64,000 bases of DNA from a virus (lineage: Duplodnaviria > Caudoviricetes): positions 1 to 64,000 of the IMG/VR virus record IMGVR_UViG_3300037400_001134. One strand, written 5' to 3'. A program made the translations under genes and the position numbers. Below, one piece after another: positions 2,438 through 57,170 of this stretch; the stretch's first letter is position 1, and each line of letters opens with the position of its first letter. Below the pieces are notes generated by a model, which searched no databases, had not been told where the DNA came from, and saw only the letters and a program-made list of their open reading frames with translations.

Positions 2438-2466
2438 TACGTCAAAATCAGAAAAGAGGTAGAGAT

Positions 2467-3069: not shown

Positions 3070-3904
3070 CCTTATAGCAGAAGATAAGTTTCCCCGATTT
3101 TCAATAGTAGTTGGGGAAAGAGGTATGGAACATGAAGATGTTGCCAGATACATAGCTAATAAGTTTCAAGGAGCTGACTACATCCAATTACCAGATGTTA
3201 AAGTAGATACAGTCAGGACTATGATTAAGCAGGCATATTCTTTGCGCCATCTCACCGTTTACTGCATCCCTCATGCAGATGATATGTCGGTTAATGCAAA
3301 GAATGCCCTGCTGAAAGTAGTAGAGGACACACCCAATAAAGCATATTTTGTTATGTGTTTAGAGGACTTGAATAATACTCTGGCTACAATACAGAGCAGA
3401 GGTATTGTATTTCAAATGTATCATCCTAGTGTGGGTGAATTAAAAGATTTTGCCAGAGAGCTTCACGTTAATAAGGACGATATAGATGAAAAAGAGATAG
3501 AGCTTTATGGAGAGCTTTGTAGTACGCCTGGTGATGTTGTTTACTTCACTAAACATAACATCATCAACTTTTATAAGTATGCAGAGTATGTGGCACATAA
3601 TATATGTGAAGTAAGCGGTGCAGAAGTGTTTAAATTTTCAGATAAGCTGGCATTAAAAGATGAGGAAGAAAAATACGATTGCCGACTATTTTTACGAGCA
3701 TTACAATTACAGTTTTGGGAAATGTGTACTTGTGCATTTAAAGGGGTACATGATAGTTCAAAATGTAATTACCTATGTAGTTGTAATATCGCAAGATGTA
3801 TAGGCAGATATATGCAAGATTTGAGAATAAAGGGTATAAATCGTGGGATGCTCATGGATGCTCTTTATTTGGAAATGAGGAAGATATGGAAATCGCAGAC
3901 TTAA
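3032..3904 (+). CDS. holB: DNA polymerase III delta-prime-like clamp-loader subunit
   Basis: IPHADDMSVNAKNALLKVVEDTP and LATIQSRG match delta-prime motifs; degenerate Walker A; sits next to dnaX. Confidence 0.8.
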   Translation: MLGQAKLIAQIDDLIAEDKFPRFSIVVGERGMEHEDVARYIANKFQGADYIQLPDVKVDTVRTMIKQAYSLRHLTVYCIPHADDMSVNAKNALLKVVEDTPNKAYFVMCLEDLNNTLATIQSRGIVFQMYHPSVGELKDFARELHVNKDDIDEKEIELYGELCSTPGDVVYFTKHNIINFYKYAEYVAHNICEVSGAEVFKFSDKLALKDEEEKYDCRLFLRALQLQFWEMCTCAFKGVHDSSKCNYLCSCNIARCIGRYMQDLRIKGINRGMLMDALYLEMRKIWKSQT

Positions 3905-4806
3905 AGAAGCAGATAAAATCAGGTGAGTTTGATAAGACATACATATTCTGTGGTGAAGAGCATACCATTATGAAGATATATCTAAATATGATAGCAGATA
4001 AGGGCGGATATGAGATATCATATGTAGATAGTCTTATGGATTTAATGACAGGTGCAAAGACAAAATCATTAGTTCCAGTACACCATTTATATGTCATAAT
4101 GGATGATAAAGAATATCTCACAAATGAAAAGATGTGGGACAAATTCAAGGGGCTTAAAGATGACGTAGTGGTATTTTATTATACCACTACAGATAAAAGA
4201 TTGAAGTTCTGGAAACAGAATAAAGATAAAGCCGTAGAGTTTGGAAAGCTAGATAATAGGATATTGACAAAATATATCCAGAAAGAAGCACCATTCTTTA
4301 CAGATGATATGTGTGATGAATTGATAACTGCCTGTGAAAATGATTATGGGCGCATCTTATTGGAGATTGATAAGATGAAACATTATTGTAGGGCAGAAAA
4401 AGTAAAGGGAGATAATGTATTTAGAAAGTTTATGGATGAGGGAGTAATATATAGAAATCCACAAGATGCAATATTTGATTTTGTAGCCGCAGTTTTAGAA
4501 AGAAGCCCAGCTAAAGCATACGACTTACTACAACAATCTAAAGCTATCGGAGAAGCTAATCTGACACTCCTATCTGTGCTTTATACTAATATTAAAACAT
4601 TATTACAAGTACAGTCAGGAAAGAGCTGGAAAGAGCTAGGATTAAATGGATTTGCAGTAAAGAATGTAGCACCATTTAAGAATAATTATAGTAATGGCGA
4701 ATTGGTAAATGCTATGAAGATAATACGAGAAGTAGAAACTGGCATAAAGACAGGTAAGATACCTGATGAGTTAGCAGTGGAGTATTTCTTGATACAAGTG
4801 ATTTAA
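3886..4806 (+). CDS. holA: DNA polymerase III delta-like clamp-loader subunit
   Basis: YIFCGEE N-terminus, ENDYGRILLEIDKM, IFDFVAAV, C-terminal ETGIKTG; operon context. Confidence 0.8.
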   Translation: MEIADLKKQIKSGEFDKTYIFCGEEHTIMKIYLNMIADKGGYEISYVDSLMDLMTGAKTKSLVPVHHLYVIMDDKEYLTNEKMWDKFKGLKDDVVVFYYTTTDKRLKFWKQNKDKAVEFGKLDNRILTKYIQKEAPFFTDDMCDELITACENDYGRILLEIDKMKHYCRAEKVKGDNVFRKFMDEGVIYRNPQDAIFDFVAAVLERSPAKAYDLLQQSKAIGEANLTLLSVLYTNIKTLLQVQSGKSWKELGLNGFAVKNVAPFKNNYSNGELVNAMKIIREVETGIKTGKIPDELAVEYFLIQVI

Positions 4807-4826
4807 AAGAGAGAGGAGAATAAAAT

Positions 4827-5108
4827 ATGCTATGTCCAAGTTGTAATGGGAGTATCTCTGTATTAGAGACCATTAACCAGCAGAGAGCTACATACAGACA
4901 GAAGAAATGCGATGTATGTGGTATGAAATTCTACACAAAGGAAGAGGTTGCAAGTGTAGACGAAGCTAAACCATTATTTGATGAATGGATTAGAGAAAGA
5001 AGCCGTAAGTGTAGAGCAAAGAAGAAAGGATTAGAGTATGAGCCGACATTCCAAGATGGTAGAGAACAGCCAGTTATTCCAAAGAAACCAACATCACCTC
5101 TGTTTTAG
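4827..5108 (+). CDS. Zinc-ribbon protein resembling the NrdR N-terminal domain
   Basis: MLCPSC...VLET...YRQKKCDVCGMKFYTKE. Confidence 0.65.
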   Translation: MLCPSCNGSISVLETINQQRATYRQKKCDVCGMKFYTKEEVASVDEAKPLFDEWIRERSRKCRAKKKGLEYEPTFQDGREQPVIPKKPTSPLF

Positions 5109-5211
5109 ATGTGGTCGTAAGCTCAAATCTGAGCAGTCGAAATTATTAGGTATGGGCCCTACTTGTTTTAAGAAGTGGCAGAATGAGCAGAATACCAAAC
5201 CATTGATATAG
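5056..5211 (+). CDS. Small zinc-finger protein (DUF6011-like), absent from the ORF track
   Basis: 51-aa ORF containing CFRCGRKLKSEQSKLLGMGPTCFKKW. Confidence 0.6.
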   Translation: MVENSQLFQRNQHHLCFRCGRKLKSEQSKLLGMGPTCFKKWQNEQNTKPLI

Positions 5212-5220
5212 GAGTGTAAT

Positions 5221-5529
5221 ATGCAAAGAAGACCTAGAAGAAAACTATACCCATATATGTGTCCTTTCTGTGATGAACTGTCTTATCCTAATAGGAGTAG
5301 GCCCCCATTGATACTGCATAATAGGTCCATTACATTATGGACTTGCCCTAATAATCATACATTCTATACATATGAAAGGGTATGTACACATCAAGATTGG
5401 GCTGATAAGGTATTTAACGGTGTAGAACAGTGTTGGAGAAAAGATTCCAATAAGTGGTTAAAAGAGCTAATAAAGAGAAAGTTTGGTGTAGAGGAATATA
5501 ATAATTCATTGGAAGATTATGATGATTGA
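5221..5529 (+). CDS. Zinc-ribbon hypothetical protein
   Basis: CPFC...WTCPNNHTFYTYE. Confidence 0.6.
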   Translation: MQRRPRRKLYPYMCPFCDELSYPNRSRPPLILHNRSITLWTCPNNHTFYTYERVCTHQDWADKVFNGVEQCWRKDSNKWLKELIKRKFGVEEYNNSLEDYDD

Positions 5530-5673
5530 ACCTCTACATATTAAATGCGACAAAATCGACTAGAGAAATCTGGTCGATTTTTTTTGTTTTTACATTCCTG
5601 TTGAATCTATATATAGGATATATTACCTTATACTTACAAACAACAACACAGAGTTCTGAAAGGAGAACACACT

Positions 5674-5886
5674 ATGGTAAAGATTACAAAAAGATGTTTC
5701 TGCTGTGGCAAAGAATCGTCATTGGAAATTACAGAAGAGGTTAATAAAATTTATCAGCAGTATTTACGAGGAGTAGGTTACATTCAAGATATTCCTCTTG
5801 ATGCAGATAAGAGGGAGTTCTTAAAGACTGGTATGTGTGTGCCTTGTCAGGAGATGATTTTTGCAGAGCCTGATGAAGATTTTTGA
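5674..5886 (+). CDS. Cys-motif hypothetical protein
   Basis: CFCCG...CVPC; AGGAG Shine-Dalgarno. Confidence 0.7.
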   Translation: MVKITKRCFCCGKESSLEITEEVNKIYQQYLRGVGYIQDIPLDADKREFLKTGMCVPCQEMIFAEPDEDF

Positions 5887-5887
5887 T

Positions 5888-5944
5888 ATTCCAGTTGATA
5901 AGATAGCATAGTCTGTGCTACCTTATCATTGTGAACAACAACAC
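5888..5944 (+). promoter_or_regulatory. Early promoter/leader cassette P1
   Basis: ATTCCAG-TTGATA-18 nt-(TG)TACCTT-ATCATTGTGAACAACAAC, then GAAAGGAG. Confidence 0.8.
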
Positions 5945-5968
5945 GCTATATGCGAAAGGAGAATTGAG

Positions 5969-6286
5969 ATGGAAATGTTATTTAGTGAAAGAGATTATGA
6001 GCCACTAAAAGAAGGAGAAACATACGAAGGTAAGTTCGTTATTATAGACCCTGCGTTCTTCAAACCCGAGTTCAGAAGTGCCAAGTATCAGTTGTTTTTA
6101 GCACAAGCTGGATTTGGATGTGACCCTAGTAAAATGGGGAATGCTGTGTTTGGCAAAGATTGTGAGGAGACTTATAGACAGGAGAGATACAACATTCTCG
6201 GTGTAGCTACAGATGAAGCCATAGAACAGTGGGAGAAAGTATATGGTATGAGTCGTGAAGTATTTAATAGAAAGGATGAGTATTGA
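5969..6286 (+). CDS. Hypothetical early protein
   Basis: True start ATG 5969 after GAAAGGAG; the track start at 5915 lies inside the promoter. Confidence 0.75.
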   Translation: MEMLFSERDYEPLKEGETYEGKFVIIDPAFFKPEFRSAKYQLFLAQAGFGCDPSKMGNAVFGKDCEETYRQERYNILGVATDEAIEQWEKVYGMSREVFNRKDEY

Positions 6287-6576
6287 TAATGGAAGAGTTT
6301 ACCACTACATTTAAACAGGACTTTGCAATAGCTGATGCATTTGGTGCATCAGCTATCAGAGATACCTATAATAGAGCATTTAATGAGTGGAAAGATGATT
6401 ACAGATATCTTACAGACCTCGCTATTGTATTAAATTATGCTTGCTGGAGATGGTATGAGAGAGGTAATAGTGAACTGAGTATGTTGTATGAGGAATTATT
6501 TTATAAGACACAGGATTATGCCTATGATACATTAAAAGGCGAAGAGTTTGACTATTATTGGAGAATGACTGATTGA
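6283..6576 (+). CDS. Hypothetical early protein
   Basis: ORF overlapping the upstream stop. Confidence 0.75.
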   Translation: MIMEEFTTTFKQDFAIADAFGASAIRDTYNRAFNEWKDDYRYLTDLAIVLNYACWRWYERGNSELSMLYEELFYKTQDYAYDTLKGEEFDYYWRMTD

Positions 6577-6588
6577 AAGGAGAACACC

Positions 6589-6759
6589 ATGAATACCGTA
6601 ATGTTTACAGATAGAAATGGAATAGAAAGAGAAGGTAAAATCCTCAGAGACTATATATCTTTTGAAGGCGAAATACGATATAGTATTGAGGATATCAATA
6701 CCCTTAGAGATTATAGATGTGTTAAGAAAAACGGTAAGTTTGTAGAGCTTGTGGTGTGA
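6589..6759 (+). CDS. Hypothetical early protein (56 aa), absent from the track
   Basis: GAAAGGAG then ATG; MNTVMFTDRNGIEREG...VELVV. Confidence 0.65.
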   Translation: MNTVMFTDRNGIEREGKILRDYISFEGEIRYSIEDINTLRDYRCVKKNGKFVELVV

Positions 6760-6772
6760 AAGGAGAATAAAA

Positions 6773-6940
6773 ATGGGAAGACCATATTCAAGAGATTATG
6801 AGAGCGAGTTATTGGATAAGTTAAGAGAGAATGGCATAACAGATGAGGATTTAGTATCTGTATTCCTGAACTATTTCAGTTCAGATGAAACTTGTGCGGC
6901 ATTGGAAGATGCTTGTGATACATATGATGTGGAATATTGA
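6773..6940 (+). CDS. Acidic hypothetical early protein
   Basis: GAAAGGAG then ATG 6773. Confidence 0.65.
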   Translation: MGRPYSRDYESELLDKLRENGITDEDLVSVFLNYFSSDETCAALEDACDTYDVEY

Positions 6941-6941
6941 T

Positions 6942-6996
6942 ACTCCTATTGTAAGGTAGCATTTTATATGCTACCTTATTTTTGTAAACAACAACA
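6942..6996 (+). promoter_or_regulatory. Early promoter/leader cassette P2 overlapped by a hairpin
   Basis: ACTCCTATTGTAA..TGCTACCTTATTTTTGTAAACAACAAC; inverted repeat AAGGTAGCAT/ATGCTACCTT. Confidence 0.8.
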
Positions 6997-7018
6997 CATA
7001 GAAGTGAAAGGAGAACAT

Positions 7019-7321
7019 ATGAGAAGAGTGGTTTATATTCCAGATGATATCGGTAATAACAGAAAATATGTAATAAAGGAAGAGTATAAAAAGTACGGTG
7101 TTTATGAGGAGATTAGCCCCAGCGGTTATAGAGTACACCAGTCTTGGCTAATACTTACTACCGAAGAGCATAAAATTCAGATACGGTCATTTATGAATCT
7201 ATGCTATGAAGAGGTATTGGATTATATTGATTTGAATGAACGTACTGGCAAATTTGAACTTAGAGCATTCCTTAGAAATGGAGTATTTGTAGTACATAAA
7301 AATGGAGATATGCGGATATGA
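7019..7321 (+). CDS. Hypothetical early protein
   Basis: ATG 7019 after GAAAGGAG. Confidence 0.7.
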   Translation: MRRVVYIPDDIGNNRKYVIKEEYKKYGVYEEISPSGYRVHQSWLILTTEEHKIQIRSFMNLCYEEVLDYIDLNERTGKFELRAFLRNGVFVVHKNGDMRI

Positions 7322-7662
7322 GTGATTTACATACAATGGAACTAAAAGATGGCAGAGTATTTACACCATTGAGTGATTATGATGTGCTTAATGAAATCTA
7401 TGATTATATGGGCAAGGATGTTCACGATTATATTGCCAGTCTCATCTTAGATACCAATGTAGAAAGAGAGATACAGGAGAAGAAGCTAAACTCTGATTTT
7501 AGGGCAATAGAATCAGAGAATGAGAGTTGGCATCAGTTTGTAGATGACCTGTCAGAAGAGGTGGAGCAGTTAAGGGAGAAGATTGAGGATAATAAGCTGA
7601 CAAAGGCTAAAATATCCATAGAACTATATAAAATACATGAAAAGATGAGAAAGGAGCTTTAA
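7318..7662 (+). CDS. Hypothetical early protein (coiled coil)
   Basis: ORF track; ATGA overlap. Confidence 0.7.
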   Translation: MSDLHTMELKDGRVFTPLSDYDVLNEIYDYMGKDVHDYIASLILDTNVEREIQEKKLNSDFRAIESENESWHQFVDDLSEEVEQLREKIEDNKLTKAKISIELYKIHEKMRKEL

Positions 7663-7663
7663 C

Positions 7664-7861
7664 ATGGAAGAATTACAACTTATGATACAGGCATTAGCCG
7701 GTACAATCGAGAATGAGATGGAAGTATTGAGAAAGATGAAGAGGGAGGGCAAAGAAGATACCAAGATGTATGCTCATAAGCTAGGAGAGATATCAGCATA
7801 TGAGGACACACTTAACATGGTGATGTTCAGGATCAACCAGCTTAATAAGAAAGGAGAATGA
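7664..7861 (+). CDS. Hypothetical early protein
   Basis: AAAGGAG Shine-Dalgarno. Confidence 0.7.
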   Translation: MEELQLMIQALAGTIENEMEVLRKMKREGKEDTKMYAHKLGEISAYEDTLNMVMFRINQLNKKGE

Positions 7862-7862
7862 T

Positions 7863-7910
7863 ATGTGGTTTCTGATATTATTTATCCTCTTTTGTGCAAT
7901 TATGCTGTGA
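7863..7910 (+). CDS. 15-aa hydrophobic micropeptide MWFLILFILFCAIML
   Basis: AAAGGAG Shine-Dalgarno directly upstream; fills the gap before P3. Confidence 0.4.
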   Translation: MWFLILFILFCAIML

Positions 7911-7912
7911 AC

Positions 7913-7966
7913 ATTCCTATTGAAGTGTCGTAAATCGTGTGTTACCTTATATTTGTAAACAACAAC
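7913..7966 (+). promoter_or_regulatory. Early promoter/leader cassette P3
   Basis: ATTCCTA-TTGAAG-17 nt-TACCTT-ATATTTGTAAACAACAAC. Confidence 0.82.
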
Positions 7967-7993
7967 AGACACGATTTATGAAAGGAGATACCT

Positions 7994-8236
7994 ATGAATA
8001 AGAAAGAGCAGGAGAAGTACAAAGATGCCAGACCACTTGGAGTGATGTGTCTCAGTAATTGGGGTGGCATAGAAGTTCTCGATATTGAGCATGGAATTGA
8101 TGACCATGTGATATGGAGAGAGAACTACGGTGAACCTAAGAAAGCTCACCGCTCAAAGATAGATTACAAACCCGAAAGACCCTGTTTCAGAGCTGGCAGA
8201 ATGACAGTTCATTTTGATGAGGTGATGAGAGTATGA
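7994..8236 (+). CDS. Hypothetical early protein
   Basis: GAAAGGAG Shine-Dalgarno. Confidence 0.75.
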   Translation: MNKKEQEKYKDARPLGVMCLSNWGGIEVLDIEHGIDDHVIWRENYGEPKKAHRSKIDYKPERPCFRAGRMTVHFDEVMRV

Positions 8237-8451
8237 CCGAATACATTATAGTAGGAGATATAAAGTCTTATAAGGATTGCCTCGTTACAGTAGTACATGG
8301 CAGTAGAAGTGATGCAGAGAAAGTGTTGGAGCGTATGCTTTACGCTCCAACAGATAATGACCTTATTCTTATGAAAGGTCATAAGAATCTGAGAATCAAA
8401 GAGGTAGAAGAAAAAGAACAGTGGTGGAATGACCCATTTTTAGCAACCTGA
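8233..8451 (+). CDS. Hypothetical early protein
   Basis: ORF track; coupled start. Confidence 0.7.
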   Translation: MTEYIIVGDIKSYKDCLVTVVHGSRSDAEKVLERMLYAPTDNDLILMKGHKNLRIKEVEEKEQWWNDPFLAT

Positions 8452-8466
8452 AAGGAGAAAGAGGTT

Positions 8467-8658
8467 ATGAAGTACAGAGTTATTTTCAAGGTAAGTTACA
8501 ATGAGGCATGGTTTGATTTTGACAACATTGAAGATGCTGGAGAGTTTGCAAAGACCATTCTCACACATCAGGCAGAAAGTCCTGATAGTAGGAAGAAGTC
8601 AACAGTAAGGATAGATGTTATAGACCCATCAGCAGAGGAGGAAAATGAAGATGACTAA
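8467..8658 (+). CDS. Hypothetical early protein
   Basis: GAGG Shine-Dalgarno. Confidence 0.7.
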   Translation: MKYRVIFKVSYNEAWFDFDNIEDAGEFAKTILTHQAESPDSRKKSTVRIDVIDPSAEEENEDD

Positions 8659-8821
8659 TCAGGAGTATATATGTTGTATCTGTGGAGAGAAGTTTACAGG
8701 ATGGGGTAATAACCCCTATCCTGTTGTAGATGATGAGACAGCCAGATGCTGTGATATGTGCAATCAGACAAGGGTATTACCAGCAAGATTGGCACAGATG
8801 TTTGGTAAGAAAGGAGAATAA
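8651..8821 (+). CDS. Cys-rich zinc-binding protein (56 aa), absent from the track
   Basis: CCICGEKFTGWGNNPYP...CCDMCNQTRVLPAR. Confidence 0.75.
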   Translation: MTNQEYICCICGEKFTGWGNNPYPVVDDETARCCDMCNQTRVLPARLAQMFGKKGE

Positions 8822-8824
8822 TTG

Positions 8825-9085
8825 ATGGCAGAATATAGTGTAGTAGGAAGTAGTAGTCGTGATAAGCTGGAGAAGATGGTAAAAGATGCGGGATATGTAA
8901 GTATGCGAGAGTTCGCCAGAGATGTAGGTATAAACATCTCTAACATTTACTCAAATCTTAATGGTAGATGGGATATATCCATTAAAAGAATGTTTAAGAT
9001 AGCCAATACTCTGAATGTGCCTATATTACAAGTCATAGAGGTATTTTATCCTGAAGAGTTGTCTGATAATATGGGAAGATTCTGA
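8825..9085 (+). CDS. XRE/Cro-type helix-turn-helix protein
   Basis: SMREFARDVGINISNIYSNLNG...FKIANTLNV. Confidence 0.8.
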   Translation: MAEYSVVGSSSRDKLEKMVKDAGYVSMREFARDVGINISNIYSNLNGRWDISIKRMFKIANTLNVPILQVIEVFYPEELSDNMGRF

Positions 9086-9140
9086 TTCCTGTTGAAATCA
9101 GCTAATGGCAATGTTACCTTATATTTGTAAACAACAACAC
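9085..9140 (+). promoter_or_regulatory. Early promoter/leader cassette P4
   Basis: ATTCCTG-TTGAAA-17 nt-(TG)TACCTT-ATATTTGTAAACAACAACAC. Confidence 0.85.
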
Positions 9141-9164
9141 GTTATATGTGAAAGGAGAACCAAA

Positions 9165-9485
9165 ATGAAAGCAACTAATGGAGAAATCAGAGAGTGGCTA
9201 AATAAACAGATTGAAGCCCTCAGAGTTATCAACGAAACCCTTGTTTTAGAAGAACATGAGGATAGTATTGATGACCTACTCAAAAATTTATCACGCAGAG
9301 AAAATATCCAGCTTGCCGCAGAGGCAGTAAGAGGTGTAGCTGACCGTCTTGACCTTGACTTGTATGTATCACATGATACAGGTAATACTGAAAACCCTTA
9401 TGAAGTAGCATTTATGTGGAAAGGCATTATGTTCTTTGGGTTAGAATCTGATGAAGAATATCATACAAGAGGACCAGTAGCATAA
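9165..9485 (+). CDS. Hypothetical early protein
   Basis: ATG 9165 after GAAAGGAG. Confidence 0.75.
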   Translation: MKATNGEIREWLNKQIEALRVINETLVLEEHEDSIDDLLKNLSRRENIQLAAEAVRGVADRLDLDLYVSHDTGNTENPYEVAFMWKGIMFFGLESDEEYHTRGPVA

Positions 9486-9501
9486 GCTACTGGTCTTTTT
9501 T
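9472..9501 (+). terminator. Intrinsic terminator
   Basis: GACCAGTAG-CATAAG-CTACTGGTC followed by a T-run. Confidence 0.8.
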
Positions 9502-9514
9502 AAGAGGTGAGATT

Positions 9515-9796
9515 ATGATGAAGTTTGTAACGACCTGTATAGATGAAAAGACTGGCTATACAATGGTGCTATCAGAAGTAAGCTATAATGTAGCTATGGA
9601 CTGGTTACAAAGGCAGTGCGAAAAGTATTTCAAGGAGATATTCAGAACCGAGAATAATGGTACAGATGATGTGTGGATATATGTAGGCACACCTAAGAAA
9701 GATATAAATCCTATGACAGGAGAGGTAGATGTGTGGTATACAAATCAAGTTGTATTCCACTATGATGAGTCAAGAGGATATTTGATGGAAGAATAA
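9515..9796 (+). CDS. Hypothetical early protein
   Basis: GAGGTG Shine-Dalgarno. Confidence 0.7.
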   Translation: MMKFVTTCIDEKTGYTMVLSEVSYNVAMDWLQRQCEKYFKEIFRTENNGTDDVWIYVGTPKKDINPMTGEVDVWYTNQVVFHYDESRGYLMEE

Positions 9797-9803
9797 TAAA
9801 GAT

Positions 9804-9844
9804 AAGCACTAGGAACTTTAACATTCCTAGTGCTTTTTCTTTTT
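9804..9844 (+). terminator. Intrinsic terminator whose 3' arm is also the upstream element of P5
   Basis: AAGCACTAGGAA-8 nt-TTCCTAGTGCTT followed by a T-run. Confidence 0.8.
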
Positions 9845-9874
9845 GGATATGTTACCTTATAATTGTAAACAACA
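9823..9874 (+). promoter_or_regulatory. Early promoter/leader cassette P5
   Basis: ATTCC begins 30 nt before (TG)TACCTT-ATAATTGTAAACAAC; weak -35. Confidence 0.7.
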
Positions 9875-9951
9875 GCAGAGAGTAAGTTTTACACCGCTGT
9901 GTATATCACCAGTGTAGATGCTGAAATCGCCACATATTGAAAGGAGAAGAT

Positions 9952-10269
9952 ATGATACTGAATGATGGATTTTACCCGTCAAAAGAGAGTGGGGTTGTGC
10001 TAGAGATGTTTGAGCATGAATGGACAAAACACCCAATGTCCGATAAATATGCGAAGGATATCGTTACTACCAGTAACAGTAATATTCAGACCTACTCTGA
10101 TGCCTTTATGTCAGAAATGGCGGGTGATGAAATATTTTTTGCAGACTGGATAAGATATAATGAGGGATTACTACCTTACATTAAGAAAGCCGCTGACACA
10201 GTGCATTGGCTACACAATGAAGGATATACAGATTACAAAGTAAATATGCAATCCGGGATAATCAAATGA
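9952..10269 (+). CDS. Hypothetical early protein
   Basis: ATG 9952 after GAAAGGAG. Confidence 0.7.
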   Translation: MILNDGFYPSKESGVVLEMFEHEWTKHPMSDKYAKDIVTTSNSNIQTYSDAFMSEMAGDEIFFADWIRYNEGLLPYIKKAADTVHWLHNEGYTDYKVNMQSGIIK

Positions 10270-10664
10270 TTATCCCTTATAATGGAAGGAGAATAGATAT
10301 GTCAACTATTATTAGATATGGAACAAAAGCAGGAGAAGAACTTGTAAGGGATATGAATTATAGACATCCTAAAGGAGAGACTCTTTATGATGTGTACGGT
10401 AAAGTTTCTTCAAAGAAGGCGAAAAGTTGGGAGAAAATCAGAGATGATTGCAACTACCTCAAAGGTAGACGCCTTCATATCATAGGAGCATCAAGTTATG
10501 GGTATTCCTGCATATATGCTTATCCTATATATGACCATAGAGATGAGAGCATTATATCCATGATGATTAGAAAGGAAACAAAGGCGAATACATACGAGAT
10601 GGAGATGCCTATAGAAGAGTACGATAAGAGGATAATACATAGTAGTACAAGGCGAATAAGATGA
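10266..10664 (+). CDS. Hypothetical early protein
   Basis: ORF track; ATGA overlap. Confidence 0.7.
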   Translation: MIIPYNGRRIDMSTIIRYGTKAGEELVRDMNYRHPKGETLYDVYGKVSSKKAKSWEKIRDDCNYLKGRRLHIIGASSYGYSCIYAYPIYDHRDESIISMMIRKETKANTYEMEMPIEEYDKRIIHSSTRRIR

Positions 10665-10671
10665 AATGTAG

Positions 10672-10707
10672 GCTACAGGAATTAAATGTTCCTGTAGCTA
10701 TTCTTTT
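10672..10707 (+). terminator. Intrinsic terminator whose 3' arm is also the upstream element of P6
   Basis: GCTACAGGAA-TTAAATG-TTCCTGTAGC-TATTCTTTT. Confidence 0.75.
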
Positions 10708-10740
10708 ACCTGTATGCTACCTTATTATTGTAAACAACAA
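10688..10740 (+). promoter_or_regulatory. Early promoter/leader cassette P6
   Basis: GTTCC begins 30 nt before (TG)TACCTT-ATTATTGTAAACAACAA. Confidence 0.75.
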
Positions 10741-10769
10741 ATACACATATGTACTGAAAGGAGTACCTT

Positions 10770-11051
10770 ATGAAGATTCAGATTATGGAAACAACAAACC
10801 CTATTTACAGAGTAGTTTTAGAGCATCCTGAGTATGGGATAGAGCGTCACGAAGTGGCTGTAGGGGGATATGACTATAACCCGTTTGATGGTGAAGATGC
10901 TTATGATGAGTATGTGGACACATTACTTACAATGTTAGAGGAGAAATACAACCCATATCATATTTGGCATGAGATGCACGTATACGCCGACTATTATATA
11001 GACGGTAAGATGTATACATCAGAGATTGTGCGAAAGGAAGATGAGGAATGA
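10770..11051 (+). CDS. Acidic hypothetical early protein
   Basis: GAAAGGAG Shine-Dalgarno. Confidence 0.75.
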   Translation: MKIQIMETTNPIYRVVLEHPEYGIERHEVAVGGYDYNPFDGEDAYDEYVDTLLTMLEEKYNPYHIWHEMHVYADYYIDGKMYTSEIVRKEDEE

Positions 11052-11347
11052 CCATATTTGATTATATCATAGAACATACTGCAACCGCATTAGAGGAAAG
11101 AAAAGAGCGGCTGATTAAGATGGATGCACCAGATATCCTTATAGATAATATAGTGGATGAGCTTATTCGCCTGTATCAAGGGGAGTTAATCTGTTTCGGT
11201 GATACCGAATTACTTGATGCAGAATTTAAAACCGTCATTCAGAAGAAAGGGCGAGGTGGTATACTGTACTACACATTTAATGGAGATATCAACTATTTCC
11301 CAAAAGCTAAATATGGTAGATTTGTAGCGAAAGGAGAAGTAAGATGA
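11048..11347 (+). CDS. Hypothetical early protein
   Basis: ORF track; coupled start. Confidence 0.7.
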   Translation: MTIFDYIIEHTATALEERKERLIKMDAPDILIDNIVDELIRLYQGELICFGDTELLDAEFKTVIQKKGRGGILYYTFNGDINYFPKAKYGRFVAKGEVR

Positions 11348-11556
11348 AAACTTATTTGGTAGCTATTAGAGATGTAAGAGGATTCACCATTATAGATAAT
11401 GAGGGATATGAATTAGAGTTTGACCTTAAAGAAGGCAGCCGTGTAAAGATATATGAACACGTAGAGACCTATAAAGACGAGATTACGGTTAAGTTGTTCA
11501 ATAATGAAGATATCGGAATAGTCAGCGCACAGGACTTCAAAATCGTTCAGGAGTAA
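11344..11556 (+). CDS. Hypothetical early protein
   Basis: ORF track; coupled start. Confidence 0.7.
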   Translation: MKTYLVAIRDVRGFTIIDNEGYELEFDLKEGSRVKIYEHVETYKDEITVKLFNNEDIGIVSAQDFKIVQE

Positions 11557-11570
11557 AGGAGAGAAGAGAT

Positions 11571-12083
11571 ATGATGAGGAAAGATGTAAGAAAAGTTAAT
11601 GGCAAGTTTCAGTTATTATTAGGTAAAAAGAATGATGCTACATATTGGCTGCAGAGAGCCCCATTCGACTGTGAATGGTATTGGGGTATAGGATATGTAG
11701 AGGGCTATAGAGGTAAAGGAAGTTCAGATAAGAACTGGAGAAGTCACCAACACTTTGATAGATTATTCTTTAATGGACCATCTGACTATAAAACCATGTT
11801 TGATAACTTCTTTGATGAGACCCCATTTACAGATAGAGAGGAGTGGCAGATATTAGAGCTTATGAAATCAGCATACACCTGCCGTGAATATTCAGATATG
11901 TTATATACAGGTGGGTCACATATATCAAGCACAGTAAAGGTTGAGGCGATAAAGAATGATACAGAGTATGAGAGAATAAATAAACAGGTAATTCCATCAA
12001 TACTCAATGAGCTATATAAAGTAATGTCGCCAGAAGATGTAAACATAGATATATTTCATAAAGTAAATCCCGTAGTGAGGTGA
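11571..12083 (+). CDS. Hypothetical early protein
   Basis: 170-aa ORF, AAGGAG Shine-Dalgarno. Confidence 0.8.
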   Translation: MMRKDVRKVNGKFQLLLGKKNDATYWLQRAPFDCEWYWGIGYVEGYRGKGSSDKNWRSHQHFDRLFFNGPSDYKTMFDNFFDETPFTDREEWQILELMKSAYTCREYSDMLYTGGSHISSTVKVEAIKNDTEYERINKQVIPSILNELYKVMSPEDVNIDIFHKVNPVVR

Positions 12084-12087
12084 GATT

Positions 12088-12243
12088 ATGATACACTGTG
12101 AGAACTGCCGCTATTATACCGAGAAATTCGACATAGATGATTGGACTGGTGAGTATTTTGATTTCTGTGAGTGCTCCGCATACTGTGAACCTATTGATGA
12201 TACAAATAAAACAGATTGTCCTGAATATATAGCATTGGGATAA
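12088..12243 (+). CDS. Cys-rich small protein (51 aa), absent from the track
   Basis: GAGGTG Shine-Dalgarno; MIHCENCRYY...CECSAYCE...CPEY. Confidence 0.6.
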   Translation: MIHCENCRYYTEKFDIDDWTGEYFDFCECSAYCEPIDDTNKTDCPEYIALG

Positions 12244-12340
12244 CAAATATGGCGACTTTCCAGCGTTTCCACTACATTTAATGATAAAAATATCAAGCGC
12301 ACAAGTGGAAGCGCTGGAATCGTCTGTAAATGAGTTGATT

Positions 12341-12397
12341 ATTCCTGTTGAATCACAGTAGCGGATATATTACCTTATTAGTGTAGAGAACAACAAC
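12341..12397 (+). promoter_or_regulatory. Early promoter/leader cassette P7
   Basis: ATTCCTG-TTGAAT-17 nt-TACCTT-ATTAGTGTAGAGAACAACAAC. Confidence 0.78.
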
Positions 12398-12423
12398 AGT
12401 TAGTTGAAAGGAGAAAACCTAAT

Positions 12424-12792
12424 ATGAAGAAGTTAACATATGAGAGTTCCGTAGCAGAGGTAAATAGAGTAGTAGCAGAGATTCGCCAGATTTGTGAGAG
12501 ATACAACTTCTGGAACAGAGAAATACGCCCTTACTCTTGGAGAATGACAGTCCGTGAGCTAGTAGAGAGTGAAGGATGGAATAAATATAAGGCTTATACC
12601 TTATCATCAAAAGCCGTCATTCGCCAAGAGATAAACGGTTTTGTAGATATTCTTGAACACTGGGTAGCATATGAGAATGAACCTATGGTCAAGATTCACT
12701 ATATAGCTGGTAGTAAAGTTGATATGATAGAGGAAGTACATGAAAGCCTTGCAGAGATATTCATTCAGGCACAGATGGCAGAGCTGGTGTAA
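12424..12792 (+). CDS. Hypothetical early protein
   Basis: GAAAGGAG Shine-Dalgarno. Confidence 0.75.
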   Translation: MKKLTYESSVAEVNRVVAEIRQICERYNFWNREIRPYSWRMTVRELVESEGWNKYKAYTLSSKAVIRQEINGFVDILEHWVAYENEPMVKIHYIAGSKVDMIEEVHESLAEIFIQAQMAELV

Positions 12793-12804
12793 ACCAGCTC
12801 TTTT
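12780..12804 (+). terminator. Intrinsic terminator
   Basis: GAGCTGGT-GTAA-ACCAGCTC-TTTT. Confidence 0.75.
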
Positions 12805-12806
12805 AC

Positions 12807-12860
12807 ATTCCTGTTGATAAGGTACTGCCTGTGCAGTACCTTATTATTGTAAACAGAAAC
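12807..12860 (+). promoter_or_regulatory. Early promoter/leader cassette P8 with a 12-bp inverted repeat
   Basis: ATTCCTG-TTGATA-17 nt-TACCTT; ATAAGGTACTGC-CTGT-GCAGTACCTTAT. Confidence 0.82.
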
Positions 12861-12886
12861 ACACATATGAAAGAGAGGACCCACAA

Positions 12887-13126
12887 ATGTTAATGATGTT
12901 AGAAGAAGTATTCCCGAGGCAGAATAGAATGAATGAGTATCCCATGGGGGAAGAGCAAGAGTTCCAGAGCATGAAAGAGTTTATAGACTGGAACATAGAG
13001 CAGATTGATGAAATCCTGAAAGATGCTCCAGAGGAGCAGATAACGAAAGACAAGCTGACCAGCGGTGAATATACAGTCTATGAAAAAGATGGAATAATCT
13101 ATGTAAGAGTGGAGGTAGAAGCATGA
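12887..13126 (+). CDS. Acidic hypothetical early protein
   Basis: GAGAGGA Shine-Dalgarno. Confidence 0.7.
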   Translation: MLMMLEEVFPRQNRMNEYPMGEEQEFQSMKEFIDWNIEQIDEILKDAPEEQITKDKLTSGEYTVYEKDGIIYVRVEVEA

Positions 13127-13308
13127 AAGTTGCAGAATTACTTGGAGCCATAGGAGAAAATCAAGATTACTATATTGTGACCGCTGATAGAAGGCCTGAA
13201 GTAATAGATGTGAAAACGGCGGTAGAACATGATGCGAATGTTTTAGGAATTGTAGCAGTAAGAGAAAACCTTATAAGGATAGAAACTAATTTCAAGTGGT
13301 ATTTATGA
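13123..13308 (+). CDS. Hypothetical early protein
   Basis: GGAGG Shine-Dalgarno. Confidence 0.65.
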   Translation: MKVAELLGAIGENQDYYIVTADRRPEVIDVKTAVEHDANVLGIVAVRENLIRIETNFKWYL

Positions 13309-13322
13309 GAGGAGAATAGCAA

Positions 13323-13532
13323 ATGATAGTAGTAAAGCCAGTAAGAGGAAATCATGTTATAGAGGTCACCGATTTTGGTAAATCAATGTATGGGGGTTGG
13401 TACTTAAACTTCTATGACCCTACATACGATAAGTATGACGGCATAAGAAGAGATACACTCCGTGAATTATGTGCGTGGTTAGGTGTAAGTAGGACAGCCT
13501 TAACTAGAGATGTAAGGAGATTAGATAACTAA
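13323..13532 (+). CDS. Hypothetical early protein
   Basis: GAGGAG Shine-Dalgarno. Confidence 0.7.
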   Translation: MIVVKPVRGNHVIEVTDFGKSMYGGWYLNFYDPTYDKYDGIRRDTLRELCAWLGVSRTALTRDVRRLDN

Positions 13533-13533
13533 T

Positions 13534-13588
13534 ATTCCAGTTGAAAGGGTACTGCATGAGCAGTACCCTATAATTGTAGACAACAACA
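13534..13588 (+). promoter_or_regulatory. Early promoter/leader cassette P9 with an inverted repeat
   Basis: ATTCCAG-TTGAAA-17 nt-TACCCT; AGGGTACTGC-ATGA-GCAGTACCCT. Confidence 0.8.
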
Positions 13589-13615
13589 CACACATATGCG
13601 AAAGGAGATACCGAT

Positions 13616-13876
13616 ATGCAGAGAAGAAAATCATTATCCGAGAAGGATATCAGAACAGTTTTAGCCATCATTGAGAGCTAACGTGAACAGAACCATTATA
13701 ACTATGAGGAGATGAACAGAAATATGGGCAGCCTTACAATCGAAGAGATGATGGCGCTAAATAAAAAGCTAGAAGATTGGTACCATAAAGATGATGTAGT
13801 AGATGAACTTGAGGATGTAGATATGGATGAATATAGGGAATCCTATAATGATTACATCCATTCATATATCTATTGA
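13616..13876 (+). pseudogene. Early ORF interrupted by an in-frame TAA at 13679-13681
   Basis: Strong Shine-Dalgarno and ATG 13616; the frame stays open after the TAA until TGA 13874-13876. Confidence 0.55.
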
Positions 13877-13893
13877 TAGAAAGGAGAACCGAT

Positions 13894-14193
13894 ATGAAAC
13901 TTTACAGAGACAAGGAAACAGGAAAGAAGTTATATCCAGTTTGTTCATGGGAAAAGAATCAGCACAAGTTATACAATGCCATAGATAGGGCACATAATGC
14001 AGTATCGGACCTTCTTGAAGATAAGAATGCCTCATATGAGGATATAGACAAAGCAGAAGAGTGGGTGACAGAGATAGAAAGGCTAACGAGTATATTCGAT
14101 AGCCATGTAGCCCCAAATGGTATAGTCTATGCGTTATGGGAAGATGCACAGAAAATAAAAGATGTAATATGGGCATACAATGCCAGACATTGA
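13894..14193 (+). CDS. Hypothetical early protein
   Basis: ATG 13894 after GAAAGGAG. Confidence 0.75.
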   Translation: MKLYRDKETGKKLYPVCSWEKNQHKLYNAIDRAHNAVSDLLEDKNASYEDIDKAEEWVTEIERLTSIFDSHVAPNGIVYALWEDAQKIKDVIWAYNARH

Positions 14194-14209
14194 GAAAGGA
14201 GAACCAATA

Positions 14210-14431
14210 ATGACAAAAGCATACGCAATAGGGGATTACAGTTACAAAATGGTAAGTGAGGCCATAGAGATGGTCAATCAGAACTGCGACAATGAGGGCG
14301 AAAAGAGGATACCCATGAAGTTCTACCATCTATATAATGCAGATGATAATGGGTGGTATGTAGAGTGTCTGCATGAAGAGGATGAACCAAGATTAGAGAG
14401 ACACCTTAACTATATATTTGGTATAGAGTGA
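14210..14431 (+). CDS. Hypothetical early protein
   Basis: ATG 14210 after GAAAGGAG. Confidence 0.7.
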   Translation: MTKAYAIGDYSYKMVSEAIEMVNQNCDNEGEKRIPMKFYHLYNADDNGWYVECLHEEDEPRLERHLNYIFGIE

Positions 14432-14465
14432 CTGGAAAATAAGGCGGGCGAAAAGACAACCTAAT

Positions 14466-14980
14466 CCATTTAAAAATCAATATATAGAACTAGGCAAATA
14501 TAAACCATCACCATAATATAGAAATCAATCTAAATCATAGAGGCCATGTAGCAATACATGACCTTTTAGTGTATACCATATGTCAATCTGTAGAAATCAA
14601 AAAGAGGGCGGTATAAGAGTCCTGTCCATCTATACCAATTATTATAACCAAATACACTACCATATATAATATCTAAAGAAACCATCTAAATACCATTGTT
14701 TAGCCATTTATGCCATGCCTTTATTTGGCTCGTATCTAGTGCCATTCAGTAGCCATCTAGCCATTTCGCTATTTCCATTCTTAGACCATATGCCCTACAA
14801 CCCTAATCATATAGACTATCACTAGCCTATCACCCTGGTGCCGTCCGACAAGATTTGCAAGCTATTTTTCAATTTTTTAGTAAAAGGTTGCATTTTTTGT
14901 CATGCCTTTATAGGCCATTAGGGGCTATCCCAAACTCCCTCATTCCCTTTATGCATTTTGCACAAATGGCACCAGGCCAT
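14466..14980 (+). repeat. CCAT-rich non-coding block 1
   Basis: About 18 top-strand CCAT (often GCCATT) in ~515 bp, counted by eye. Confidence 0.75.
14541..14567 (+). terminator. Intrinsic terminator
   Basis: AGGCCATGTA-GCAA-TACATGACCT-TTT. Confidence 0.6.
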
Positions 14981-15102
14981 TAGCTTTGCAGTCCTCTTAG
15001 AGGTTTTAGCGGGCGTCCTTATGAGGGAAAAGTGCCGAAAAAAAGGGGGTTGGTATCCGACTGGAAAAAGCCCGCCAAAATTTGTTCGTCAAATTGCACA
15101 AT

Positions 15103-15155
15103 AAACCTGTTGAATGGTTATAGGGGCTAGAGTACCATAAAATAAAAAACAGCAC
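15103..15155 (+). promoter_or_regulatory. Early promoter/leader cassette P10 (variant)
   Basis: AAACCTG-TTGAAT-17 nt-TACCAT; leader CAGCACACACATGAAAGAGAGG. Confidence 0.7.
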
Positions 15156-15179
15156 ACACATGAAAGAGAGGAAACCAAA

Positions 15180-15401
15180 ATGACAAAAGCACAGAGATGG
15201 GACCATTTAGTAAAGAGATTTGAGAGCTTCACCGAATTACAGAGAAGGGACCTAGATGTAGAGAAGTGGGATGATGCTATAAACAAGATGTACGGATGGA
15301 TAATCGCCGCATCAGAGTTCAATCCTGATTTAGAAGATGATATATCAACCCTTTGGACAGAGACTTATAATAGGGAGTTTAAGCAGAGGTATATGAAGTA
15401 A
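15180..15401 (+). CDS. Hypothetical early protein
   Basis: GAGAGGA Shine-Dalgarno; own promoter and terminator. Confidence 0.75.
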   Translation: MTKAQRWDHLVKRFESFTELQRRDLDVEKWDDAINKMYGWIIAASEFNPDLEDDISTLWTETYNREFKQRYMK

Positions 15402-15403
15402 TA

Positions 15404-15583
15404 TCCATCTACCCCATTTATATAGAAGAAACAGGGTTGCCATTAGTGGCAGCCCTTTTTATTGCATATTTTGACCTATGGCCATTAGAGGCCTATGGCC
15501 ATTATCCATTTCGCCCATTGCCCCATTGGCCCATTCCTCTACAGGCCCTTTGCTGACGTAGGCCATTGCAGTCCCCTGGCCCC
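15404..15583 (+). repeat. CCAT-rich non-coding block 2
   Basis: About 10 CCAT, six of them within 15481-15535. Confidence 0.7.
15433..15460 (+). terminator. Intrinsic terminator
   Basis: AGGGTTGCCA-TTAG-TGGCAGCCCT-TTTT. Confidence 0.8.
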
Positions 15584-15646
15584 ACACACAGGTGGTGTGG
15601 TGGTATGTGAGCTTCGCTCACAGAGGATCTGCTTGCACACAATGTA

Positions 15647-15673
15647 ATTGTAAACAATAACATTGTTTACAAT
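15647..15673. promoter_or_regulatory. Perfect 12-bp inverted repeat of the TTGTAAACAA motif (operator-like)
   Basis: ATTGTAAACAAT-AAC-ATTGTTTACAAT. Confidence 0.65.
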
Positions 15674-15915
15674 GAATATACATAAAAATGATAGATTTAT
15701 GTAAAAAGTGTATATCTACTATATAATGCAAAAAATTGAAAACTTTTTAAATTTGTTGTTGTAAACAATATCAAGTTATGATAATATGATATTGAGCTTC
15801 AATGAAGCGTGAGCTTTGAAGCGTGTTCTACATATTGCACTTTGACAAACATAGACACTTACGTGTCTATCATATGGAAACGTAAATATCACAATATGAA
15901 ACGGAGACAAGTATC

Positions 15916-16497
15916 ATGGAAAAAACAACTATTTTTAGCAACTATTCACTCAAGCAAGCAACATTCGATAACACAAACAAGCGTGTTGCAATGACAGACA
16001 AAGAGCTTGCAACGCTCAAAGCACTTTGCAAGACAAAAACGTTTGGTCTTGTATCGCTAATTGATGATATCGACAATATTGCAACGTTCAATGGTGACTA
16101 CGATTGTAAACTAGCTCAAAGCGGAAACGCAAAAGAGCACACATTAGTTTCGATATGGAGTCGTAACGCTGTAAAGCACGTTACAAAAAAGAGCGATTAT
16201 CGTGATTTTGGGGTTCGTTTTCACGTAGACAAGCTAGCAAAGCTTTATAGCAATAAAGACTTTGCAAAGCTGATAAAAGATAGCAGCGTGCAAGTATACT
16301 CACATAAAGATGGATTAGAAATCAGATTTACGTTTAACACGTTGTCAGATGCTATCAAGTTTATAGCTGATATCGACAACGCAACAAAAGAGACTAGCAA
16401 AGCAAAAGAGCAAAAGAGCAAAGCAAAAGAGACTAAAGCAAAGCAAAGCAAAACAAAGTCTAAAGAGACTACAACAGAAAAGAGCATCACAGCATGA
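15916..16497 (+). CDS. Proline-free 193-aa protein with a Lys/Ala-rich C-terminal tail, function unknown
   Basis: CGGAG Shine-Dalgarno, own terminator, no Pro, tail KETSKAKEQKSKAKETKAKQSKTKSKE. Confidence 0.85.
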   Translation: MEKTTIFSNYSLKQATFDNTNKRVAMTDKELATLKALCKTKTFGLVSLIDDIDNIATFNGDYDCKLAQSGNAKEHTLVSIWSRNAVKHVTKKSDYRDFGVRFHVDKLAKLYSNKDFAKLIKDSSVQVYSHKDGLEIRFTFNTLSDAIKFIADIDNATKETSKAKEQKSKAKETKAKQSKTKSKETTTEKSITA

Positions 16498-16561
16498 TAA
16501 TAACTTTTCTAGTCATCACTTTTCTAATCTTTTTTGCAATTGCTAGATTGACTCGATAAAG

Positions 16562-16597
16562 AAAAAGAGCTACTCAAAAAAGAGTAGCTCTTTTTTT
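16562..16597 (+). terminator. Intrinsic terminator built without GG or CC
   Basis: AAAAAGAGCTACTC-AAAAAA-GAGTAGCTC-TTTTTTT. Confidence 0.85.
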
Positions 16598-16933
16598 GTG
16601 CTTGTAAAACGTGTTCACTATAATGCTATTTTATGCGATTTTTCGATTTAAGACGTTTTTGCGTTGCACCTGATAAAATGTTCGATAGTGATATTTACGT
16701 TGCTAAAATCGCTAAATTTTACGATTTAAGACTATTGACAAAAATGCATTTATATGTTACACCACCCCCTACCCGTACATACGTTCGATTGCTACGCAAG
16801 CTCTGATGTGAGCTTGGACACACAGGTTAGGGGTTTTCATAAGACCGTCACAAGTCATTGAGGAACTTACCATACGTGCAGGTCGTGGATTTTCTACCAG
16901 GACAGATTTTCTAAATACCGTGGGCGCTCAAAG

Positions 16934-55635: not shown

Positions 55636-55651
55636 ATATGTTATAGTATGT
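55619..55651 (+). promoter_or_regulatory. Class-2 promoter (ATGTTATAGTATGT motif)
   Basis: TTTACA-17 nt-(TG)TATAGT. Confidence 0.75.
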
Positions 55652-55708
55652 TTGTAGTTGAGCAACACAAAACATTTTAAACGTCTAAACGACAGAAAGG
55701 TAAAAACG

Positions 55709-56428: not shown

Positions 56429-56460
56429 TGGCAAGATTTTCGTATGAGGCAATATTGTGA
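56428..56460 (+). pseudogene. Orphaned original 5' end of the SSB gene (MARFSYEAIL)
   Basis: Strong AAGGAG Shine-Dalgarno; ATGGCAAGATTTTCGTATGAG resembles the SSB start ATGCGATTTGCGTATGAA. Confidence 0.6.
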
Positions 56461-57169: not shown

Positions 57170-57170
57170 T

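Follow-up and report, generated by a model that had tools for sequence, protein, structure and literature searches.

A 1.1-kb early operon of a tailed phage has been stripped of the dinucleotide CC and of every dispensable GG. It lies near 15,584 to 16,760 in the stretch of DNA analysed here (hereafter the window: 64,000 nt, positions 1 to 64,000 of the IMG/VR record IMGVR_UViG_3300037400_001134; Duplodnaviria, Caudoviricetes), and its main open reading frame (ORF), ORF193, encodes a proline-free protein. The purge of this segment (the island) is real, selected and unusual: a local, complete dinucleotide ban on one early operon. The original prediction, made from the letters of the window, had described an absence of CC over 1,085 nt. 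Our recount confirms it, with the + strand free of CC between 15582/3 and 16669, a gap of 1087 nt that is unique in the whole 75,058-bp genome, where the runner-up measures 386 nt. In 60 genomes simulated with a first-order Markov model, the longest CC-free gap averaged 409 nt and never exceeded 584 nt. From the base composition of the island itself, 28.5 CC would be expected.

The stretch purged on both strands runs from ~15627 to the motif ACACCACC at 16759-16766. Between 15627 and 16760 we counted 11 GG and a single CC (at 16669), that is, 12 CC+GG, whereas every other stretch of equal length holds 40 or more (median 69). The distribution of the 11 GG is as predicted: nine lie in ORF193 (the ATG-GAA junction, five Gly/Trp sites and one GGGG run, which counts three times), one in the ribosome-binding site (RBS) GGAG and one at -40. 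Altogether ~65 dinucleotides are missing from the island, CC and dispensable GG alike and regardless of context, while the overall CC/GG frequency of the genome outside it is normal. In the interval first proposed, 15584-16760, the first ~45 nt (15584-15626) lack CC as stated, but they are G-rich and carry five GG.

Other compositional details of the original prediction were borne out as well. The arginine codons AGG and CGG are practically unused across the homologues of ORF193, the 14-bp stem of the terminator contains neither GG nor CC, and CG is indeed enriched, with a rho of 1.09 in the island versus 0.46 in the remaining genome. GC is raised too (rho 1.86 versus 1.12). The ban on CC/GG, with renormalising, accounts for most of the rise in GC and for part of that in CG.

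Several trivial origins of the pattern were rejected. Chance is ruled out by the gap lengths in the genome together with the Markov simulations. An APOBEC-like hypermutation of CC does not fit, with C content not lowered, CT, TC and AG not raised and the protein under strong purifying selection. An assembly or synthetic artefact was dismissed on finding the same syntenic island in independent assemblies (ENA, JGI, Logan, IMG/VR). The notion that only the island can be sequenced or assembled, the rest being hypermodified, found no support, contigs of four runs also spanning the flanks at similar depth. The island:flank depth, a figure drawn from contigs only and of interest for the idea of a terminal repeat, was 1.7x in one run and ~1x in another. 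Finally, we looked for a gradient of CC depletion around the island and found none, the early region being CC-enriched.

Conservation of the purge among relatives

We compared the DNA of eleven further loci besides the window copy. Nine lineages carry 0-2 CC in the island, where 24-40 would be expected, and in eight of these nine GG is reduced to 11-18 versus 36-48 expected. Six of the GG in those eight lineages are the same invariant Gly/Trp codons; other GG in the ORF number 0-3, and the non-coding parts of the island hold ~2 GG and 1 CC. The exception is L012, with 37 GG versus 43.5 expected, most of them in its G-rich left border. In all six lineages with long enough contigs the island occupies the same position, between small early genes and the terS/terL/portal genes.

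This pattern has outlasted extensive divergence. Against the window copy, synonymous divergence (dS) is 1.2-1.9 or not computable (saturated) in seven lineages, and the ratio of non-synonymous divergence (dN) to dS in ORF193 is ~0.03-0.1. Since synonymous sites are saturated and CC is still missing, the ban must be actively selected at the DNA level. When the observed substitutions were replayed at random over 270 nt, 3.4-7.6 new CC arose in 7/8 lineages, which actually show 0-1. The replay for L013, the closest relative, gave 1.6 new CC, which is not significant. L013 also carries an extra gene of 83 amino acids between the micropeptide gene described below and the terminator (L013:1930-2181), which is CC-free and has a marginal PHROG match (E 0.007). 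In the closest pair the island has diverged faster than its neighbours, with a dS of 0.44 versus 0.15-0.20 for terS/terL and a dN of 0.047 versus 0.003.

Two distant homologues depart from the rule. In L021 both dinucleotides occur at normal frequency and the protein has one Pro; L010 lacks CC over its first 677 nt, with 10 CC versus 29 expected in the whole contig and a normal GG count (49 versus 46 expected). Because these two break the rule, the ORF193 protein is evidently encodable with CC and the ban belongs to the lineage or context. Homologues with normal CC and Pro content had been named beforehand as an outcome that would speak against a selected purge; L021, and in part L010, are of this kind, while nine lineages are purged. 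The asymmetry of L010 may reflect a strand-specific reader. It may equally reflect decay of the ban, since on a strand rich in G (G 21.6%, C 14.4%) GG comes back sooner than CC.

The claim that CC/GG was shed by selection thus holds in orthologous islands that are CC-free in nine diverged lineages despite saturated synonymous sites, and these comparisons strongly support the view that natural selection keeps CC/GG out of the island in the phage and most of its relatives.

The same comparison bears on the view that the purge is a by-product without a dedicated reader, whether of recent acquisition from a compositionally different source or of amino acids and codons chosen for rapid translation (Gly rare, Pro absent, and neither an internal GG resembling a Shine-Dalgarno (SD) sequence nor a CC that would pair with one). 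The codon usage and dinucleotide signature of the island are unlike those of the remaining phage: besides CG rho, the fractions of AGC (0.41 in the island versus 0.08 in the phage's other genes), CGT (0.45 versus 0.09), ACG (0.20 versus 0.03), AAC (0.72 versus 0.25) and CAC (0.80 versus 0.25) are all raised, and the sole non-coding GG cluster that was retained is the RBS. However, non-coding DNA, codon junctions and an unrelated inserted gene show the pattern as well; avoidance of SD-like sequences would account for the loss of GGAG, GAGG and AGGA but not for that of all GG and CC; and the purge persists through saturated synonymous divergence in nine lineages, where a foreign origin cannot hold CC at zero. 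The divergence test essentially excludes such a by-product, and we consider both of its variants together very improbable.

Anatomy of the island and its borders

From its sequence features the island reads as one self-contained operon, in which putative promoters of the host type and a putative operator precede ORF193, a gene for a membrane micropeptide and a terminator (Table 1). A consensus promoter scan found no excess of promoters, and those listed were recognised by eye and from the alignment of nine lineages. The repeat unit of the putative operator, TTGTAAACAA, occurs elsewhere in the genome only in five early promoter-leader cassettes, just downstream of the promoters.

Table 1. Features of the island and of its immediate flanks (positions in the window).
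Feature	Position	Strand	Remarks
Left flank	14458..15583	+	Mostly non-coding, saturated with CCAT(T)/GGCC; outside the purge and bounding it sharply on the left
Last early cassette, ORF73	15180-15401	+	Within the left flank
Terminator of the ORF73 cassette	15433-15456		Terminator-like site from a scan
Left border	15584..15626	+	CC-free; holds the conserved motif CAGAGGAT
Octamer GGTGGTGT	15591-15598	+	In the left border
Hairpin GTGAGC-TTC-GCTCAC	15607-15621		In the left border
Regulatory region	15627..15915	+	CC-free, 2 GG
Putative operator	15648-15672		Perfect palindrome TTGTAAACAAT-AAC-ATTGTTTACAA, built from TTGTAAACAA
Putative -10 box TATAAT	15722-15727		Sigma-A-like
Putative promoter TTGTAA, 17 nt, TGnTAATAT	15759-15764, 15779-15787		Sigma-A-like, conserved
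Putative promoter box TTGACA	15842-15847		Conserved
RBS GGAG	15903-15906	+
ORF193	15916..16497	+	193 aa, Pro-free; conserved ~160-aa domain and a basic tail rich in Lys/Ser/Glu/Thr
Micropeptide gene	16494..16559	+	21 aa, hydrophobic; ATGA start/stop overlap with ORF193
Intrinsic terminator	16562..16600	+	14-bp perfect stem AAAAAGAGCTACTC / GAGTAGCTCTTTTT, then a T run
Post-terminator segment	16601..16758	+	One CC (16669), no GG
Right border motif ACACCACC	16759-16766	+	Inverted copy of GGTGGTGT of the left border; no other copy in the genome
Right flank	16767..16919	+	CC/GG-rich repeats ATAAGACCGTCAC (TATAATGACCGTG in relatives); upstream of ORF147; outside the purge

ORF193 has 19 homologues with identities of 49-100%. 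It matched no Pfam or PHROG family and no helix-turn-helix (HTH) domain, and a profile search of 1.8 billion representatives returned only four clusters, so the family is a narrow one. Its AlphaFold2 model (mean predicted local distance difference test score, pLDDT, 73) gave no Foldseek match in the PDB at E <= 0.001. The fold matches from VIA-align (best Z 4.7; C-terminal domain of T4 MotA, Z ~4) were at noise level and were discarded. An alignment of the 3' region places a single-helix peptide gene at the micropeptide position in all lineages. In Rfam the island has sub-threshold matches only, including one to SpF25 (RF02432) at 16492-16598 that scores 35.9 bits, below the gathering score of 48.

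The post-terminator segment is present in the window copy, L013 and L005. L001, L003, L004 and L014 lack it, and in these four the purge stops ~25-30 nt after the terminator. On its left side the island is met by a CC density of 11-13 per 150 nt. On the + strand the genome has only two copies of the octamer GGTGGTGT; the reverse complement is found a single time, at the right border. At that edge, (T/C)A(T/C)ACCACC is kept in the seven aligned lineages that possess a right edge; L011 does not align there. A 10-nt direct repeat, ACACACAGGT, is found at 15585 and 16820. A Chi-like reading of GGTGG was considered and abandoned, its strand skew being about what the base skew predicts.

Upstream, the region 14260-15578 contains 11 of the genome's 26 GGCC and nine CCATT. 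The block (14260-15583) thus combines these GGCC, in a genome that elsewhere avoids GGCC about fourfold, with a run of CCATT at a spacing of 7-9 nt; one possibility is an array of binding sites for a protein, for instance a pac site or a signal that stops entry. Downstream, in 16767-16919 and also in L001:10760-11090, a TATAAT-like box with GACCGTG after it is repeated two to three times, upstream of ORF147 and terS. These may be late promoters or a packaging signal. The genes terS (17353) and terL (17854) lie downstream of the right flank and ORF147.

Candidate readers of the dinucleotide

The purge hits a dinucleotide, in the main clade on both strands, and extends to non-coding DNA; a reader of CC/GG at the DNA level is therefore the most economical explanation. 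Shedding of restriction sites, one of the possibilities raised by the original prediction, did not survive a count: only ~4 CC-containing restriction words (4-5-mers) are expected in 1.1 kb, as opposed to the ~65 dinucleotides lost. With restriction words so few, what is needed is a reader of the dinucleotide itself, such as the recognition of a protospacer adjacent motif (PAM).

The explanation that we favour, tentatively and while regarding it as rather unlikely taken singly, is evasion of a host DNA reader, such as one that recognises a CRISPR PAM, by DNA that enters the cell early. Besides enzymes of DNA modification, the only short DNA reader in defence known to us is the PAM. PAMs of type II systems are NGG, and those of types I-A, I-B and I-F are CCN or CC. 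An operon free of CC/GG would escape the notice of a DNA-level reader of that dinucleotide, the likeliest candidate being host surveillance that uses CC/GG as its entry point, that is, as the PAM of CRISPR interference and spacer capture. The packaging cut would be expected near terS, so that the island and the adjacent early genes would be among the first DNA to enter the cell. A leading operon without PAMs would be a less frequent target of capture and cutting during the synthesis of its products, and repeated sweeps of escape would erase every dispensable PAM in it. In what order the DNA enters, which reader is involved and what ORF193 does are points that we infer.

Published work gives this mechanism some footing. 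Cas9 reads the GG dinucleotide with two arginines, and spacers are taken from free DNA ends (PMC10415147); first-injected ends are the preferred spacer source according to PMC6546361, which cites Modell 2017 for it. The faster evolution of the island and the turnover of its cargo would be expected of a locus in an arms race, and lineages without the purge would be expected if the reader depends on the host. Furthermore, this phage visibly uses motif avoidance against its hosts. GATC occurs in 5 copies in 75 kb where ~230 are expected from composition, and CGCG in 2 copies versus ~70. GGCC is ~fourfold low genome-wide, outside the one block beside the island, and CCGG is also depleted, for much of which the depletion of CG accounts. 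The scarcity of GATC, CGCG and CG is a strong signature of restriction avoidance.

Several observations weigh against evasion at entry. A PAM-free segment of 1.1 kb leaves the other 74 kb exposed, unless entry is staged or capture strongly biased toward the ends. The two ends of the contig adjoin in G001, a relative that carries the island, so the assembly is circularly permuted and its ends are arbitrary. Of the proposal that the island is exposed first, what stood is that a position just upstream of terS fits; in a permuted assembly this position is compatible with early entry and proves nothing. The pairing of Terminase_2 with Terminase_3 presumably points to headful packaging, with scattered ends. 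Nine to eleven GG persist in the island as targets, and ACGT (11 copies) and TCGA (7), which the remaining genome avoids, are present in it, which is odd for the most exposed DNA. In one study of Streptococcus thermophilus cos phages, new spacers were not enriched at the termini (PMC13575424).

A second view, which the original prediction also raised, is that the operon is a modification-free zone. Glycosyl adducts, single or two side by side, whose placement depends on CC/GG, made by the phage's own TAGT enzymes, with a fourth glycosyltransferase-like protein and a ParB-like partner included, would be kept off the operon, so that it is read and bound alike whether the DNA is modified or not. 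The enzymes are there: three TAGT glycosyltransferase ORFs (60380-61237, 61234-62073 and 62605-63477) score 81, 75 and 123 bits, above the Pfam cut-off of 27.5, and G001 has the same three. These paralogues, the possible fourth glycosyltransferase and the ParB-like helical protein belong to a replisome cluster (54973-63477), between polA and the clamp genes. Phage systems combining a C5-methyltransferase, a TET enzyme and a glycosyltransferase write at very short motifs, for example GpC[C/T] (PMC8256090), and T-dioxygenases prefer NTC or NTG, some of them requiring a ParB partner (PMC13229309). In addition, CC is a functional letter elsewhere in the genome, as ten early promoters carry an invariant CC. 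These belong to ten near-identical promoter-leader cassettes between 5888 and 15180, each composed of ATTCCTGTTGAAA, 17 nt, TGnTACCTT, a TTGTAAACAAC leader and GAAAGGAGA, with the invariant CC lying in the -10 element TGnTACCTT and in ATTCC. To the left of the island lie the last of the ten and the CCATT/GGCC block.

The writer that should place the modification was, however, not found. Six-frame searches of the whole genome (PF00145, PF12851 and PF00303, E <= 1; divergent enzymes could escape them) gave no candidate for a C5-methyltransferase, a TET/JBP enzyme or a thymidylate-synthase-like hydroxymethylase, and neither a protein-atlas search with a 256-aa ORF nor a PDB sequence search with a 221-aa ORF revealed a hidden dioxygenase. 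The fourfold depletion of GGCC outside one block, with CCGG also low, implies that CC cytosines are not protected. A specificity of the GpC[C/T] kind would modify the island more rather than less, given its GC rho and its frequent GCT and AGC. Moreover, the early genes, which are read from incoming DNA, are enriched in CC (top-strand rho 1.3-1.5 in the early region 2001-16000, versus 0.7-1.2 in the structural and replication regions), so adducts on CC cannot generally block the host polymerase. The claim that a CC-directed modification is avoided is thus left with three TAGT genes in its favour and no writer gene, and we judge it improbable. As the two reasons originally proposed, a defence target and a modification, are each partly consistent with the data and not separable by it, the proposal as a whole is partly supported.

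The selecting agent might also act on RNA. A CC-free mRNA would survive a collateral RNase that cuts at CC (of the Csx1/HEPN type), or a GG-free template would escape a toxin that modifies G next to another G, and the products of the operon would still be made during active defence. SisCsx1 is a defence RNase that cuts specifically between two cytidines (PMC6754442), and type III systems draw their spacers preferentially from phage genes that are expressed early (PMC13575424). Among the rules of the island, the absence of CC from the sense strand is the strictest (0 in most lineages), L010 combines low CC with normal GG, and GG in the ORF of L012 is only mildly low. The end of the purge shortly past the terminator in four lineages is in keeping with selection on a transcript, and the codon usage (CGT, AAC, CAC, GAC and AGC favoured) suggests a gene that is strongly expressed and read by the machinery of the host. 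An RNase specific for CC fails, though, to account for the purge of GG in the main clade, which is almost as strict as that of CC at synonymous, junction and non-coding sites alike, and the CC-only pattern of L010 can also be explained by a relaxed ban on a G-rich strand. The CC-free zone also overruns the presumptive transcript on both sides, beginning ~65-150 nt upstream of the first recognisable promoter and, in three lineages, continuing 160-290 nt beyond the terminator. Selection on the RNA therefore strikes us as quite improbable.

About a third of the probability goes to a reader that nobody has described. In a broader form of this idea, phages of unrelated hosts would keep a 'pioneer' operon, coding for a regulator or for early control and lying near the packaging site, free of CC/GG, and a widespread, undescribed factor, of host or phage, would read the dinucleotide; we find this plausible but doubtful. 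Such a factor could be a nuclease, a toxin that modifies nucleic acids, or a consequence of hypermodification of C or G. If true, the island would be one well-documented example of a general kind of dinucleotide-stealth cassette that the literature has yet to describe.

Comparison with known systems

The island is closest to phage motif avoidance and to leading regions of the T5/T7 type, and it is a proven member of neither. As in the avoidance of restriction sites or the depletion of PAMs, selection removes words that a host defence reads, and for GATC, CGCG and GGCC the present genome displays such avoidance in its classical form, across the whole genome. The island differs in that a whole dinucleotide is banned and not a 4-6-bp word, in one 1.1-kb operon only and at the price of a Pro-free protein; classical restriction-site avoidance concerns specific, for the most part palindromic words of 4-6 bp only and leaves the dinucleotides within them normal in other contexts, which is not what is seen here. 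A limited literature search found no published description of a local, complete dinucleotide purge.

The first-step-transfer DNA of T5 and the leading region of T7 with gene 0.3 are small and terminal, have host-type promoters, enter first and are expressed alone, and the pre-early DNA of T5 is naturally without the sites for a restriction enzyme that are present in the remaining T5 genome. The repeat-rich block beside the island recalls the injection-stop region of T5. In contrast to T5 and T7, the phage gave a circularly permuted assembly and has terminases of a type suggestive of headful packaging, and ORF193 is unrelated to A1/A2 or Ocr.

With hypermodification by a C5-methyltransferase, a 5mYOX (TET) enzyme and a glycosyltransferase the phage shares its three TAGT enzymes and the ParB-like protein. 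Such systems write at contexts of 2-3 nt, and a sequence free of the context would stay unmodified (PMC8256090, PMC13229309). Here, however, the glycosyltransferases were found and a methyltransferase, dioxygenase or other hydroxymethyl writer was not, and the known contexts are GpC[C/T], NTC and NTG rather than CC. No modification-free island is described in PMC8256090 or PMC13229309.

Messages without ACA resist MazF. Transcripts that escape MazF or SisCsx1 (PMC6754442) resemble the island in that full removal of a motif spares one message, but their logic is one-stranded, whereas the main clade here purges GG and probably untranscribed DNA as well. Two further kinds of locus were compared. 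An anti-CRISPR operon with Aca-type autoregulation has a strong promoter with a palindromic operator and a gene for an HTH regulator; a perfect palindrome lies upstream of ORF193, and in ORF193 no HTH or other Pfam/PHROG domain and no significant fold match was found. A type I toxin-antitoxin or SpF25 small RNA is not indicated, as the gathering score is not reached and the peptide gene is no independent unit, its translation being coupled to that of ORF193.

A selected dinucleotide ban in one operon is the sequence footprint of a molecular reader, strong enough to strip proline from a protein and to outlast saturated synonymous change. Depending on what that reader is, its identity would reveal a new counter-defence (stealth leading DNA), a rule of hypermodification or a dinucleotide-specific defence enzyme. 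The footprint is easy to scan for and, if recurrent, could serve as a general marker of first-acting or master-control genes in uncultured phages.

Genome surroundings

The genome is that of a 75-kb siphovirus-type phage with all large genes on one strand, and it encodes an SPP1-type portal, Terminase_2, Terminase_3 and its own replisome. No DNA similarity to deposited phages was detected, and no homologue turned up in the bacterial genomes searched. Parts of the region occur in runs of 14 studies, mostly of ruminant gut, with no RNA run among those listed. Three GIY-YIG proteins resembling homing endonucleases were also noted, at 44133-44717 and 56504-57169 and in a relative (L015:2495-3421); two have NUMOD3 motifs and one has an HTH like that of sigma-70 region 4.

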